In this document: positions 858 to 10,887 of the stretch, one piece after another | How positions within the stretch are numbered: the first letter of the stretch is position 1 | Layout of the letters: each line of letters starts with the position of its first letter | Source: a virus | UHGV virus genome: UHGV-0030812 | DNA: 11,091 bases | Strand: one strand, 5' to 3' | Notes under the pieces: generated by a model | Told to the model about the DNA's origin: nothing | Seen by the model: the letters and a program-made list of their open reading frames with translations, nothing else | The model's database searches: none | Program-made: the position numbers and the translations under genes

Positions 858-925
858 TCGGGTCCTTCCTGGAATTATGGCCCGTTACGGGGCGGCGACC
901 TCGCGGTTTTTCGCTATTTATGAGC
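858..925 (+). other. Lambda-type cos site, copy 1 (cosQ-like GGGTCCTTCCTGG, cosN GTTACGGGGCGGCGACCTCGCGG, then TTTTTCGCTATTTATGA), plus-strand orientation
   Basis: Contains the 12-nt lambda cohesive-end sequence GGGCGGCGACCT (890-901) within the symmetric cosN. Roughly 85-90% identical to the reverse complement of 1621-1690. Lambda match is recalled from memory of the lambda genome ends. Confidence 0.7.
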
Positions 926-938
926 TTTTTTAGAGGGA

Positions 939-1088
939 GGTTGTTGTTTAATTGTTTGTCATATCCATTTGATAACTAAGTAAAAATAAAGAGCAATACA
1001 ACAACCTGATAGTGTTTTTTTGATGCTAAAAATAAAAAAATGCTAATTGAATCAAATAGTTTTAAAAAAATACGTGGTTGTTGTATTG
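939..1088. repeat. AT-rich segment carrying three copies of GGTTGTTGT(A/T)TTG (939-954 plus, 994-1006 minus, 1076-1088 plus); cosB-like terminase/accessory-protein binding region adjacent to cos copy 1
   Basis: Repeats read directly; A-tracts throughout (930-1110). The arrangement (repeats in both orientations next to cosN) resembles the R-site layout of lambda cosB. Confidence 0.45.
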
Positions 1089-1118
1089 CGTATTTGATGG
1101 CGTAACAGAAAGTGATTT

Positions 1119-1559
1119 TTAACTTTGCTGTTCTGTAACGACTGATTGTTCCATGCTGGCACGGCGAACGCTTACGGCATGACGCCACCCAGCCAGAAAG
1201 CCAGCCATTTTATTTCGTGCCTTGCTCACATCTTCCGGTGAATAGCCGTAAATCTGCAAACCTTCATCAAATCGATGTTCTGTTTCTTCACTGGAGTACT
1301 CGTCACGCTCAGATGAAAGCAGCCTGGCAAACATAATTTTTTCCAGCGCACTGGTTTCTACGTGATATCTGATGGTCTCAAGACGGCTTTTACCTGAAGA
1401 CCAAAGCAATGTATGCCCGATGTGATAACCGCCAGACTTTCCGCGATCCGCATTAAGATACGGCATCCCCTGTTTGGTCCATGCGCGAATAGTGGTTCTG
1501 TTAACCTTGAAATGTTCAGCTATTTCCTGCTGACTTACAAAACAAGCTTTATCAATCAT
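1119..1559 (-). CDS. Small terminase subunit homologue, lambda Nu1-like (N-terminal winged-HTH); possibly a packaging-redirection factor
   Basis: 146 aa; N-terminus VSQQEIAEHFKVNRTTIRAWTKQGMPYL parallels lambda Nu1 KKQLADIFGASIRTIQNWQEQGMPVL. ATG at 1559-1557 sits about 60 nt downstream of cos copy 2, as Nu1 does relative to cos in lambda. The C-terminal half is not obviously Nu1-like. Confidence 0.65.
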   Translation of the reverse strand: MIDKACFVSQQEIAEHFKVNRTTIRAWTKQGMPYLNADRGKSGGYHIGHTLLWSSGKSRLETIRYHVETSALEKIMFARLLSSERDEYSSEETEHRFDEGLQIYGYSPEDVSKARNKMAGFLAGWRHAVSVRRASMEQSVVTEQQS

Positions 1560-1620
1560 AATGTTACCTTAACTGCATGGTTAAATATTAATCAAGTGGT
1601 GGTGGTGTCATCTTCACGGA

Positions 1621-1690
1621 AAAACGTCATAAATAGCGAAAACCCGCGAGGTCGCCGCCCCGTAACGGGTCCATATGCCGGAAAGGACCC
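1621..1690 (-). other. Lambda-type cos site, copy 2 (minus-strand orientation), directly upstream of the Nu1-like gene
   Basis: Reverse complement reads GGGTCCTTTCCGG...GTTACGGGGCGGCGACCTCGCGGGTTTTCGCTATTTATGA, which matches the remembered lambda right-end/left-end junction almost base for base apart from about 10 nt between cosQ and cosN. Confidence 0.8.
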
Positions 1691-1692
1691 AT

Positions 1693-1716
1693 AAAAAAAA
1701 GCCGGATTTCTCCGGC
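1693..1716 (-). terminator. Rho-independent terminator ending the capsid operon
   Basis: On the minus strand, GCCGGAgaaaUCCGGC (perfect 6-bp GC-rich stem) is followed by U8; lies 7 nt downstream of the 137-aa gene stop. Confidence 0.8.
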
Positions 1717-1722
1717 CTTGTC

Positions 1723-2136
1723 TCAGATGGTTTTCAGTATGCGATCGATGTCGCCGTCATCGCCCTGGTTTCTGCCATCGTATGCCATGCCAGCTGATAC
1801 GGCTTGCGGGCTGTGCATGTCCATAAAGTTTTCAAAGGCTGCGGTAAGTTCCGGCGCAACCTTCGGACGTTCCTGCTCTATGGTCATGCTAAGGATGCTT
1901 TTAGCCGTACCAACATCGATACAAGGCACGTTTGCCATTGCACGTAACAGCGGCTGATAGTCGCCAGATTCATCAAGCGCCATAATCGCATCAGCGCGCG
2001 GCTTGTCCTGCTCTTCCAGTTTGTTGAGTTGATATACGGCCTCGTAGGTTGATAAACCTCTGTCAGCCATTGCCCGCGCTTCTGCTTTAAATTTACTCGC
2101 CAGCGGTAGCGCCATGATGCTTTCATTCGTTGCCAT
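1723..2136 (-). CDS. Hypothetical protein, 137 aa, last gene of the capsid operon
   Basis: ATG at 2136-2134 with AGGGGA Shine-Dalgarno, 12 bp after the gpD-like stop. No family recognised. Confidence 0.6.
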   Translation of the reverse strand: MATNESIMALPLASKFKAEARAMADRGLSTYEAVYQLNKLEEQDKPRADAIMALDESGDYQPLLRAMANVPCIDVGTAKSILSMTIEQERPKVAPELTAAFENFMDMHSPQAVSAGMAYDGRNQGDDGDIDRILKTI

Positions 2137-2148
2137 CGTTTCCCCTGC

Positions 2149-2484
2149 TTATCGCGCCAGCGGCTGAACGGATACGCCAGAACCCGCAAAGGCGGCGCAT
2201 TTTTTCGCGTCAGTGTCGGCGCTCTCAGGCCAGTTTACGGCGGCGATATTAAATATCCCCGTCTTGTAACACTGTGCTGATTTCTGCTTTGACGTGTCCA
2301 CGGGGTACGAGGTCAGATAAACAGCCTTGCCAGATTCCTGACCATCCCACGGCTTAAACTCGCCATTGTCCGCCAGCATCAGCGGGGTAAATTCCTGAAT
2401 AACGCCAGCATCAGCGGCAAAATGTACCAGCGTCGTGGCGACCTGCTGACTGCCTGCAAATAACTCAATGTATGGAGTGTCCAT
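2149..2484 (-). CDS. Head decoration protein, lambda gpD-like
   Basis: 111 aa; FTPLMLADNGEFKPWDG and YKTGIFNIAAVNWPESADTDAKKCAAFAGSGVSV align with lambda gpD MTPLMLD...VAWDG and [40 protein letters not shown] Shine-Dalgarno precedes the ATG. Confidence 0.8.
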   Translation of the reverse strand: MDTPYIELFAGSQQVATTLVHFAADAGVIQEFTPLMLADNGEFKPWDGQESGKAVYLTSYPVDTSKQKSAQCYKTGIFNIAAVNWPESADTDAKKCAAFAGSGVSVQPLAR

Positions 2485-2495
2485 AGAATCCCCCG

Positions 2496-3551
2496 TTAAC
2501 CAATTTTGACGGTAACAAATTTGCGAATATCTGCCGGTACCGGCTGCGGTGCACTGTGTGTCTGCACGTACTCAATCGCCGGATCTCCGTCCTCAATCCA
2601 GTTTTTCGGGTAGTACATGTTTTGCGTTGCCCCCGTTCTTACTGCGTCCTGATCCATAATCGCACCATAGGCCACCAGCCCTTTATTGTTGGTGTTGCCC
2701 AGGACAAGCAAATCAGGCTCAAGGAAATATTTTTCTGTGCCGTCGCTGTCGGCGTATTTGCCGGAATAGACGATAAGGGCAATATCGCCCAGATAGCCTT
2801 TAAAGCTCACCACTTCGCCCAAGTTTTTACATGCCAGCTCTGCGGCGGACTCTGAACCACGGGAAAGATCGTACAGCTCACGGAATTTTTTAAAGCTGCG
2901 TAACGTTCGCCATACCTCAGCGCCCATAATCATGACGTTGGCGGGGCAACCTGCCTGATCGGCGTATAGTTCGATATCATAGATTGGATCGTGGATTTCT
3001 TTGTCCTGCTCTGACCATTTTTTACCGTCGGCCTGCTCTATGATGTTTTTTTCCGGTATCTTCCAGTCGATTTCATAGCGCTCTATGCCTTCGCCCTCAA
3101 TGATGTTTTTTCCGGTCGTTACCGCATTTACCGCCAGCCATTCCACGCGCGCTTTTATGGCGTTTATCTGGCGGCGCATATTGCCAGTAATCAGGCGCAT
3201 ACGGCGATAGGTAGGGTCGTTAAGCTGTGCCGGATCTTCTCCAGCCATGCGCATGATGGTTTTCGTTGGATCGATTTCGTGCTTTGGCTTCATGTAGCCA
3301 GGTTTGATTGTGCTGGTTTCGTACCCTTTATCGCGCTGAACCTGGCTACCCACCATAGGCGAACAAAACGCCGACATGGTGACTTCTTCAATGTCCAGGG
3401 TATCCAGCATGATGTTTTGCGTGCTGAATGTCGCCACGTTCGGGAAAAACAGCGTGGTAAACAGCGGACTGAATTTAAATTCCGCAATATCCCCGCGATT
3501 CAGGTACGCAAAAAGCTGGTTAGTGTTAAGTGCCATTGCTTTTACTGTCAT
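2496..3551 (-). CDS. Major capsid protein, lambda gpE family
   Basis: 351 aa, colinear with lambda gpE (341 aa) along its whole length: FKFSPLFTTLFFP / FKFDPLFLRLFF, PGYMKPKHEIDP / PGYVKPKHEVNP, EDPAQLNDPTYRRMRLI / EDPQNLADPAYRRRRII, VLGNT, YPKNW. Start ATG overlaps the upstream stop as TAATG. Confidence 0.9.
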   Translation of the reverse strand: MTVKAMALNTNQLFAYLNRGDIAEFKFSPLFTTLFFPNVATFSTQNIMLDTLDIEEVTMSAFCSPMVGSQVQRDKGYETSTIKPGYMKPKHEIDPTKTIMRMAGEDPAQLNDPTYRRMRLITGNMRRQINAIKARVEWLAVNAVTTGKNIIEGEGIERYEIDWKIPEKNIIEQADGKKWSEQDKEIHDPIYDIELYADQAGCPANVMIMGAEVWRTLRSFKKFRELYDLSRGSESAAELACKNLGEVVSFKGYLGDIALIVYSGKYADSDGTEKYFLEPDLLVLGNTNNKGLVAYGAIMDQDAVRTGATQNMYYPKNWIEDGDPAIEYVQTHSAPQPVPADIRKFVTVKIG

Positions 3552-3757
3552 TATTCCCCCCCGTGAACCTGATTCATACCCAGCGCCGCGCGTAAATAGG
3601 CGCGTACCTGCCAGCCTGTTGACGGCTCAACCATCGCCAGCGGATCAAGTCCTGCCGCAATGCCTGCTTTTACGTTCTGCTGGTGGCGTTCCTTGAGCGC
3701 CTTCACGATGTCGGGGCTTATGTACACCGAAACACCGCCTTTTTTCTCTTCAGCCAT
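3551..3757 (-). CDS. Hypothetical protein, 68 aa, first gene of the capsid operon
   Basis: ATG at 3757-3755 with AAGAGGAA Shine-Dalgarno; its stop overlaps the capsid gene start, indicating translational coupling. No family recognised. Confidence 0.55.
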   Translation of the reverse strand: MAEEKKGGVSVYISPDIVKALKERHQQNVKAGIAAGLDPLAMVEPSTGWQVRAYLRAALGMNQVHGGE

Positions 3758-7279: not shown

Positions 7280-7417
7280 TTACAGGCTCAATTTTTGTTT
7301 GTCGCGTTCATTGTCGCCAAGTGTTTCAAGCCATATGCGTAATATTTCCATCATGCTTTCACTGTGAGAAAGTGCAAGAAATGCGCGGTCTATTGTTTCA
7401 AGGTAAATATCACGCAT
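7280..7417 (-). CDS. Small ORF, 45 aa (MRDIYLETIDRAFLALSHSESMMEILRIWLETLGDNERDKQKLSL), absent from the ORF track
   Basis: ATG at 7417-7415 lies 1 nt after the orf73 stop, with GGGGA 5 nt upstream; TAA at 7282-7280. Hand-translated; fills an otherwise empty 200-bp gap in a tightly packed operon. Confidence 0.35.
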   Translation of the reverse strand: MRDIYLETIDRAFLALSHSESMMEILRIWLETLGDNERDKQKLSL

Positions 7418-7640: not shown

Positions 7641-7873
7641 AACCCCCCCCCATTTTCACAATCAGCAATCAGGATGGCTTTAGCCTCATTCAGCGCCATA
7701 TCCGCACTAAGTTGCATAACCGCCAGCGAATGAGGAACGAAAGCCCCTGCATATTCTGTTTCACTGGTGGCGTGCTTATGCGCCATGTCAGCAATAACAG
7801 AAATATCAATAAGCGCGTGCATCAGCGTAGTGAGCGCGGCGGCTGCTGCGTCCGGTGTGGTTTTATTGCACAT
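7613..7873 (-). CDS. Hypothetical protein, 86 aa from the ATG with the AGGAGG Shine-Dalgarno
   Basis: AGGAGG sits 7 nt upstream of the ATG at 7873-7871, so the ORF-track start at 7915 is probably too long. The ATG overlaps the end of the Icd-like gene. Ends ENGGG LCVMIVLIP* right after the G9 tract. Confidence 0.5.
   Translation of the reverse strand: MCNKTTPDAAAAALTTLMHALIDISVIADMAHKHATSETEYAGAFVPHSLAVMQLSADMALNEAKAILIADCENGGGLCVMIVLIP
7643..7651. repeat. Homopolymer C9 (G9 on the coding strand) at the orf86/orf73 junction
   Basis: Read directly; the two ORFs overlap across it in different frames. Confidence 0.9.
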
Positions 7874-8063
7874 GGCACACCTCCTGACGAATACGGGCGG
7901 CGAATACAGCAACACAACCGGACGGGCAACGGCTACGCGCTTCGCGTTCCGTCCAGGCGGTTACGTGGATGATTTGAGATTCTCCGGCACTTAGTGCCAG
8001 AAAACGCCACACAAAGGCAGTTTGTGTGTGCGCCAGACGTGGGGTATGCTGTGTTCCAGCCAT
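7863..8063 (-). CDS. Small protein (66 aa) resembling the Icd-like family of P4-type elements; first gene of the leftward replication operon
   Basis: ATG at 8063-8061 with AGGAG 7 nt upstream. Sequence MAGTQHTPRLAHTQTAFVWRFLALS...TEREARSRCP...FAARIRQE matches my recollection of Icd-like proteins (unverified). The ORF track shows it only as the tail of an implausible 378-aa read-through ORF. Confidence 0.5.
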   Translation of the reverse strand: MAGTQHTPRLAHTQTAFVWRFLALSAGESQIIHVTAWTEREARSRCPSGCVAVFAARIRQEVCHVQ

Positions 8064-8151
8064 AATCGTTACTCCTGTTAACGGTTTGGTTAGACGCCCC
8101 GCTACTGCCGCAAACAGTTCGGGGCGTTGTCGTTTACATCCTCTTACTGAG

Positions 8152-8228
8152 GTGTGATTTAAATTAAATTCAACTGAATCACAGGTCAAGTGTTTTTTGT
8201 GATTCTTTTTTGTGTATACTGAATCACA
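8152..8228. promoter_or_regulatory. Divergent promoter/operator region with two inverted-repeat sites: TGTGATT-N15-TGAATCACA (8153-8183) and TGTGATTC-N14-TGAATCACA (8198-8228)
   Basis: Repeats read directly. They lie between the leftward operon (start 8063) and the rightward RHH gene (start 8251). The second site overlaps a TATACT -10 candidate (8215-8220). Confidence 0.5.
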
Positions 8229-8250
8229 TCTTTTGTTTAGGAGAATGCAC

Positions 8251-8556
8251 ATGGCAAAAAACACTATCAACGACAAATCAAAACAGATTTCAATTCGTAT
8301 CCCACATGATGCTTTTGATGGCATGGAATCCGTAAAACTGGACGGCGAAAGCAACGCCGGATTCATAGTAACCGCCATGCGCGGGGAGATCGCCCGCCGC
8401 CAGGCAGAAGGAAGCAGTGAAAATCCTCTGATTTCTTCTCTCGATGCATTGGCGCAAGTGGAAAAAATTGGTATTAAAGCTACGGAAGAACTCGGGCAAC
8501 TTATCGCCATCGCTCGTGAAGAACTACAGCGCCGCAAGGCCAAAGAATCAGAATAA
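8251..8556 (+). CDS. Ribbon-helix-helix (CopG/Arc-type) DNA-binding protein; candidate repressor of the element
   Basis: 101 aa from the ATG at 8251, with GGAGA 7 nt upstream (the ORF-track GTG start at 8212 is probably too long). N-terminal KQISIRIPHDAFDGMESV...AGFIVTAMRGEIARR fits a beta-strand/helix/helix RHH fold. Divergent from the replication operon. Confidence 0.6.
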   Translation: MAKNTINDKSKQISIRIPHDAFDGMESVKLDGESNAGFIVTAMRGEIARRQAEGSSENPLISSLDALAQVEKIGIKATEELGQLIAIAREELQRRKAKESE

Positions 8557-8598
8557 TCACTATCAGCGCCGTGGTGTGAGGTATTACGGCGCATTGCT

Positions 8599-8787
8599 AT
8601 GCAGGACAACACAATGACCGATAAAGAATTGACCAAAACATTATCACCGGCACGGAAAAGACGGCGCAGAAAGATAGAGCATGAATCAGAAAGATTCGCG
8701 CCATGTGCTTTTGCCCTTGAGCAATTCCTTAAAGAATACAGGGAAAAGCGCTCATTGCAGGTATGGCAACGAACTGAACCAGACTGA
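8599..8787 (+). CDS. Hypothetical small basic protein, 62 aa (KRRRRK motif)
   Basis: ORF downstream of the RHH gene, ending before the 8883-8910 terminator. No convincing Shine-Dalgarno, so weakly supported. Confidence 0.3.
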   Translation: MQDNTMTDKELTKTLSPARKRRRRKIEHESERFAPCAFALEQFLKEYREKRSLQVWQRTEPD

Positions 8788-8882
8788 TTGCATTGCCCAC
8801 CAGCCTGATAGCGGCTATCATCCCCGTGCTTATGTTTGGGATCACACACACAAACGGCGCAGCGGGTTATCTGTTCAGAAAG

Positions 8883-8910
8883 GCGGCTCCATTTCGGGGC
8901 CGCTTTTTTT
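8883..8910 (+). terminator. Rho-independent terminator for the rightward RHH transcript
   Basis: GCGGCTCC-atttc-GGGGCCGC (8-bp stem, one G-U pair) followed by T7. Confidence 0.7.
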
Positions 8911-9056
8911 ATGCCTGAAAAACCCCAATTTTGTGGTTTTCCAGTCTCACCAGGGCGAACGAATCCCCGCCCACGTTCTGGCGTATATTCAATCTTCATG
9001 GTTATAGCTCTGTGTTCAGATGATTGATGTGTGGCGGCTGCGTGCCGCCAGCGTGA

Positions 9057-10839: not shown

Positions 10840-10864
10840 GTTTTACCCCCTCTTTACGAAAAAG

Positions 10865-10887
10865 TGACTACACCAGTGACTACACCG
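10865..10887 (+). repeat. Right copy of the 23-bp direct repeat TGACTACACCAGTGACTACACCG, about 25 bp upstream of the int start
   Basis: Identical to 152-174; followed by GAAACAAG / GGAACAAG motifs as at the left copy. Confidence 0.7.

Follow-up and report, generated by a model that had tools for sequence, protein, structure and literature searches.

The open reading frame at positions 1119-1559 of the window (the whole 11,091-nt stretch of viral DNA analysed here) encodes, with a probability that we put at about 0.93, an RppA-type 'redirecting phage packaging' protein of a phage-inducible chromosomal island (PICI) of the EcCICFT073 type. The finding is real and not new, the gene being an allele of an already known, structurally characterised protein, and the gene itself brings no new biology. 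Its value is one of annotation: the 90%-identity cluster that holds both the window protein and RppA (229 members, all entries read) carries only the names 'hypothetical' or 'helix-turn-helix domain-containing' protein, although RppA has been characterised experimentally and structurally. The allele would also identify the locus as a PICI that parasitises lambda and prevents packaging of the helper phage. As far as could be checked, the only point of the locus that is mildly new concerns its second cos site (cos2), which has an exchangeable phage-type cosB.

Identity of the gene and its island

The window protein is identical to RppA (c1503) of EcCICFT073, the island of E. coli CFT073, at 141/144 residues (98%). 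The differences are A62T, A140V, D141V and a change of the stop codon to Gln that adds Gln-Ser, giving 146 instead of 144 aa. The 144-aa CFT073 counterpart lies at the equivalent island position (L002:12001-12435), and we equate it with RppA because the sequence of RppA (MIDKACFVSQQEIAEHFKVNRTT...SMEQSADTEQ) is given in Fig. S1 of Fillol-Salom et al. (2019, Mol Cell; PMC6739421), where 'EcCICFT073 cos1' leads directly into the start codon of the RppA gene. Among PDB sequences the sole strong match was RppC (Redirecting phage packaging protein C; 6HLK/6HN7), with E=5.5e-31 over residues 2-125. The preliminary description had held that sequence could not decide between Rpp and an independent solution; identity to RppA at this level decides for Rpp. 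The exact window sequence, with T62, is recorded on 48 contigs, so that at least this variant is real.

Homology to Rpp proteins extends over both domains, and the residues to which function has been assigned are in place. In alignments of 15-16 homologues, down to 54-56% identity, R21, T22, R25, K29, K41 and F121 are invariant and L51 nearly so, and the window protein has all of them; T62 and the C-terminal tail fall where the family is variable. Published mutants (PMC6739421) show what four of the conserved residues do: with L51D TerS is no longer bound, F121R prevents dimerisation, and R21A/T22A removes cos1-specific packaging while interference is kept. The protein has both the TerS-mimicking wHTH with R21/T22 and L51 and, with F121, the C-terminal helical dimerisation domain (alpha4-alpha6), which is unlike the Nu1 C-terminus; its gene lies directly 3' of an island cosQ-cosN whose cosB is devoid of phage R repeats. 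An AF2 model built from a 15-sequence alignment has helices at 71-84, 91-103 and 108-145 in addition to the expected HTH helices, at low confidence (pLDDT 62, and below 50 in the wing region). Foldseek with this model gave 6HLK as the sole significant PDB match (E=2.6e-5, TM ~0.35), a result that we treat as supportive only.

Table 1. Features of the rpp locus and of the island ends, in window coordinates.
Feature	Position	Strand	Remarks
24-bp direct att repeat GTGACTACACCAGTGACTACACCG	151-174 and 10864-10887		10,713 bp apart, island ends
cos2 cosN cohesive end	890..901	+	convergent with cos1
cos2 cosB, phage type, 217 bp	902..1118	+	not the Rpp target in the published system
GGTTGTTGT, exact copies	939-947(+), 998-1006(-), 1076-1084(+)		bp 50(+), 109(-), 187(+) from the cos2 cohesive end
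rppA allele, 146 aa	1119..1559	-	ORF list; ATG start; matches CFT073 c1503 RppA
Domains of the rppA allele			N-terminal wHTH, DNA-binding (~residues 1-64); C-terminal helical, dimerisation / TerS-binding
cos1 cosB region, Rpp-dependent by homology	1560..1648	-	as EcCICFT073 cos1 except bp 50, A for G
Shine-Dalgarno-like AAGG	1567..1570	-	7 nt 5' of the rpp ATG; direct sequence reading
Proposed Rpp binding site R3-PICI AGATGACACCACCACCAC	1596..1613	-	bp 48-65; proposal of PMC9026076
R3-PICI conserved core ACCACCACC	1598-1606	-	
cos1 cosN cohesive end GGGCGGCGACCT	1649..1660	-	lambda-type; rpp start codon at bp 102
cos1 cosQ-like element TTTATGGGTCCTTTCC	1680..1695	-	cosQ consensus in Fig. S1 of PMC6739421
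Terminator-like hairpin and T-run	1698..1719	-	between the end of the 137-aa gene (capsid module) and cos1 cosQ; consensus match only

The surrounding element is a 10.7-kb PICI inserted in tqsA and syntenic with the CFT073 island. Its int, alpA, primase, SSB, capsid and decoration genes, its att repeats and its lack of terL correspond to the EcCICFT073-type plan (int - alpA - pri/rep - capsid-like - cos/rpp, ~10-12 kb). The claim that the element encodes no large terminase held in the ORF list, in a Pfam scan of ten ORFs (capsid and primase included) and in the RefSeq annotation of a near-identical record, where the AI-2 transporter gene tqsA is interrupted by the island. With a stretch of the chromosome of E. 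coli strain 300709 the window shares 99.95% identity. Differences from that strain lie at 1376, 1611, 2475, 7292, 7651 and 11060 and comprise four substitutions and two indels: the substitution at 1376 gives T62 in Rpp, that at 1611 is the bp-50 change in cos1, and the indels are the loss of 31 bp at 7292 and one extra base in a C-run at 7651.

Elsewhere in the window, the minus strand carries at 1723-3757 the capsid/decoration module, with a Nu3/scaffold-like part; published work describes no phenotype for homologues of its capsid and decoration genes, and describes packaging into phage-sized heads. A 378-aa ORF at 7863-8999 (-) matches Icd-like and repressor PHROGs in its last 65 residues only; RefSeq has there a pseudogene fragment and several small genes, and the ORF is probably an artefact of read-through in non-coding or antisense sequence. 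The antisense ORF 1413-1694(+) and the ORF 976-1188(-) had no PHROG matches and were treated as spurious. An Rfam scan of the whole window gave no matches.

The two cos sites

Upstream of the gene, the 104-bp stretch between the cohesive end and the ATG is identical at 103/104 positions to the validated EcCICFT073 cos1. In the scheme of Murialdo and Feiss (PMC9026076), rpp of PICI-C starts at bp 102, counted from the cohesive end (their Fig. 1), and an 'R3-PICI' site is proposed for bp 48-65, with bp 55-63 as its conserved core; the single change in the window, at bp 50, falls inside this proposed site and outside its core. The cos1 cosB has no inverted repeats, only an ACC run. In EcCICFT073, RppA-dependent transfer is conferred by the cos1 cosB only (PMC6739421), and by homology the cognate Rpp-dependent cosB of the window would be this stretch between cos1 and the rpp start. 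Matches in a promoter scan of the cos1 cosB were at chance level. If the hairpin at 1698-1719 is functional, rpp would require its own promoter or antitermination.

On the other side of the gene lies a second site, convergent with the first, and a 71-nt inverted repeat (860-930 / 1620-1690) spans cosQ and cosN of both. We observed that cos2 (855-1118, +) is a complete lambda-style cos, with a cosQ-like element, cosN and a cosB with three R-like repeats. These are the GGTTGTTGT copies of Table 1, located 3' of rpp, between its stop codon and the cos2 cohesive end; their layout is like that of lambda R3/R2/R1, whose CGTTTCC cores stand at bp 53(+), 114(-) and 155(+). No perfect IHF consensus was found between the cos2 repeats. 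A putative second cosB-like place was indicated in strain 300709.

The preliminary description had taken the GGTTGTTGT repeats for the cosB cognate to this protein. A version of that idea can be combined with the Rpp assignment, namely that the protein is an Rpp whose DNA target is the GGTTGTTGT array, so that packaging is redirected to cos2 and not to cos1. The array is statistically clear (three exact 9-mers within 150 bp), and the 217-bp cos2 cosB differs from its EcCICFT073 counterpart, to which its sequence is unrelated. The array, however, co-occurs with a different DNA-binding protein. The cos2 cosB aligns at 78%, with all three repeats kept, to the stretch directly 5' of a Nu1-family terS that an E. 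coli RM9975 prophage carries, at a locus with terS (Pfam, 74 bits), terL, gpW and portal genes; TerS of this type begins MAFLLNKSDMASS. A scan of IMG/VR for the order cosN, GTTGTTGT, ACAACAAC, with the spacing of the window, gave 99 contigs. The next gene was the RM9975-type terS, forward and starting at bp 229, in 78 of them; in 18 it was Rpp, on the opposite strand, that best matched the DNA downstream at the protein level, and the remaining 3 were truncated. A blastn search of the cos2 cosB against the phage collection returned the generic cosQ/cosN part only, the homologues having come from E. coli prophages and from the IMG/VR scan. Since the repeats stand before a Nu1-family terS both in the RM9975 prophage and in these 78 contigs, they are to be read as the R3/R2/R1 sites of one lambdoid TerS lineage and not as an Rpp-specific array. 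The recognition-helix residues of the window protein, moreover, are those of RppA, the only cosB on which RppA acts in EcCICFT073 is that of cos1, which is conserved here almost to the base, and IMG/VR islands with Rpp 95-99% identical carry the same cos1. We regard targeting of the GGTTGTTGT array by Rpp as very improbable, and take the Rpp-dependent cosB to be, as set out above, the one between cos1 and the gene.

The cosB of cos2 is not the same in all islands: the motif is of the GGTTGTTGT type in the window, of the ATGTCCGG type in EcCICFT073 and of the TCAGATCC type in an O157 island. In CFT073 the ATGTCCGG repeats stand at bp 51(+), 110(-) and 140(-), and the cos2 cosB is a 90-93% match to the cosB that precedes terS, both in an O157:H7 prophage and in the PhiR12 phages. 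The TerS proteins of the two prophages (RM9975 and O157:H7) have a common C-terminal part and different N-terminal DNA-binding domains. Published descriptions state that no phage cosB is identifiable in the island and call the cosB regions 'completely divergent', and for this reason the phage-type nature of cos2 appears to be undescribed. We offer as a tentative reading, to which we give somewhat less than even odds, that cos2 is not a degenerate duplicate and is instead a complete helper-type cos, with a cosB module that is swapped among island variants so as to suit the DNA-binding domain of one lambdoid TerS or another. The island might then have two packaging routes, an Rpp-dependent one from cos1 for lambda/phi80-type helpers and an Rpp-independent one from cos2 for a second helper lineage; or cos2 might serve as a TerS decoy. 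If this is true, swappable cos2 cosB modules, together with the existence of rpp-less islands that have two phage-type cos sites, could explain the retention of cos2 and a wider helper range, which would be relevant to satellite-helper specificity.

Two further arrangements were observed among sister islands. In E. coli O157:H7 strain JEONG-1266, an island beside phoQ (L004:3989-4870) has in the rpp slot a full Nu1-family terS (180 aa, 82.6 bits). The cosB 5' of this terS contains ACACCAAC(-)/GTTGGTGT(+) repeats, preceded by a GGTGG run at the R3 position, and the convergent cos2 3' of it has TCAGATCC at bp 52(+), 113(-) and 152(+). In other IMG/VR islands (L010, L013, L015, L024, L032, L033, L061, L084, L085 and L105) only rpp remnants of 22-51 residues are left. 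These islands share the primase, SSB, capsid, decoration, 137-aa and 93-aa genes with the window family and have two convergent phage-type cos sites that differ in specificity, of the GGTTGTTGT and ATGTCCGG types, 536-637 bp apart (e.g. L010:4192-4727). Their appearance suggests inversion or recombination between the inverted cosQ-cosN repeats, and they would have to depend on direct recognition by helper TerS.

Likeness to lambda Nu1

The preliminary description had labelled the protein a small terminase, a TerS paralogue with a Nu1-like N-terminal wHTH and a C-terminal half of a different kind. Both observations were borne out, and the label was not. In local alignments residues 1-64 scored 62 against full Nu1, a value reached by 0/300 shuffles (23.6 ± 3.8; z ~10). 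Residues 65-146 showed no Nu1 likeness, their score of 29 being that of shuffles (28.8 ± 5.2), 144/300 of which reached it. PHROG 57 (terminase small subunit) was matched with E=4e-8 by residues 7-46 only, and phmmer aligned residues 6-70 with structures of the Nu1 DNA-binding domain (1J9I, 6HN7_B) at E=0.06-0.11. The Nu1 profile search, which the preliminary description had proposed, gave for Pfam Phage_Nu1 (PF07471) 14.6 bits over profile positions 3-36 of 164, that is over the HTH part only, against a cut-off of 30 bits and scores of 74-83 bits for true members at related loci. The likeness is weak and confined to the wHTH (~residues 7-64), and full-length membership of the Nu1 / small-terminase family was rejected. 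The protein is shorter than Nu1, as had been noted, by 35 residues.

A self-sufficient small terminase, in the form of a shortened paralogue of Nu1 that would itself bind the island cos and directly recruit helper TerL, is extremely improbable. It would account for the Nu1-like wHTH and for the position of the gene, which is that of terS in the cos-terS order, and related islands do have a true Nu1-family terS at the rpp position. Against it stand the sub-threshold family score, the lack of Nu1 similarity past the wHTH, the strict dependence of EcCICFT073 transfer on helper terS (PMC6092414) and the published analysis of Rpp proteins (PMC9026076), which argues that, as they have no TerL-binding domain, TerS provides TerL. 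Nothing supports the docking to helper TerL that had been suggested: where Nu1 would contact TerL, the window protein has the Rpp dimerisation domain. The sub-threshold matches of 20-35 residues to MerR, BldC and other HTH families, rejected as family assignments, together with the structural resemblance of RppC to MerR and BldC (PMC6739421), could be taken to indicate an ordinary HTH transcription regulator with no packaging role, a reading whose probability we consider negligible beside 98% identity to a packaging protein.

Proposed mechanism and comparison with known systems

The RppA-type assignment brings with it a mechanism worked out on RppA and RppC (PMC6739421). RppA blocks lambda and phi80, escape mutants fall in TerS, and island transfer needs RppA. 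RppC is a dimer through its C-terminal helices and binds one TerS monomer per protomer, its wHTH substituting for the second TerS DNA-binding domain. Transferred by homology, this would make the window protein a homodimer held by its C-terminal helices, each protomer of which would capture one lambda/phi80-type helper TerS monomer with its Nu1-like wHTH and helix alpha6 and replace the second TerS DNA-binding domain. The complex so formed, TerS-Rpp2-TerS, would no longer recognise phage cosB, so that the phage would be blocked; by means of the recognition helix of Rpp (R21/T22) it would recognise the island cosB beside cos1. TerL would still be recruited by the TerS C-terminus, and would nick the lambda-identical cosN and package island concatemers into phage-sized heads. 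In the window the cognate site would be cos1, directly 5' of rpp on the minus strand (cosN 1649-1660, cosB 1560-1648). We infer that the window allele, like RppA and RppC, captures helper TerS, stops the packaging of the phage and favours that of the island. The preliminary description had foreseen the formation of a heterodimer with helper TerS and the retargeting of packaging to the island; this has been shown for RppA, from which the proposal would extend to the window allele.

Four systems can be set beside the locus. The terS of the JEONG-1266 island resembles it in occupying the slot between two inverted cos sites in an island of the same family; its product is a full Nu1-family member with inverted R repeats in its cosB, whereas the window protein is not such a member. 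Lambda gpNu1 has a wHTH of equal fold type with weak sequence similarity, and its gene has the same position just 3' of cosN-cosB, but the window protein has no homology to it past ~residue 64, is without its oligomerisation and TerL-binding parts and is 35 residues shorter. RppC (6HLK; 6HN7 is its complex with lambda TerS 1-98) shares the wHTH followed by three helices ending in the long alpha6, and R21, T22, R25, K29, K41 and L51 are conserved between the two proteins. It is clearly more distant from the window protein than RppA is: RppA and RppC are 43.65% identical, and RppC, of 153 aa, has divergent dimer-interface residues, forms no heterodimer with RppA and binds lambda TerS more tightly (PMC6739421). 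EcCICFT073 itself differs in that it lies between roxA and phoQ, with an integrase of a different accession, while the window island lies in tqsA, and in the unrelated sequence of the cos2 cosB 3' of the gene. With RppA the window protein shares the start at bp 102 from cos1, a cos1 cosB that is 1 nt apart, and a common island architecture with the same neighbour genes.
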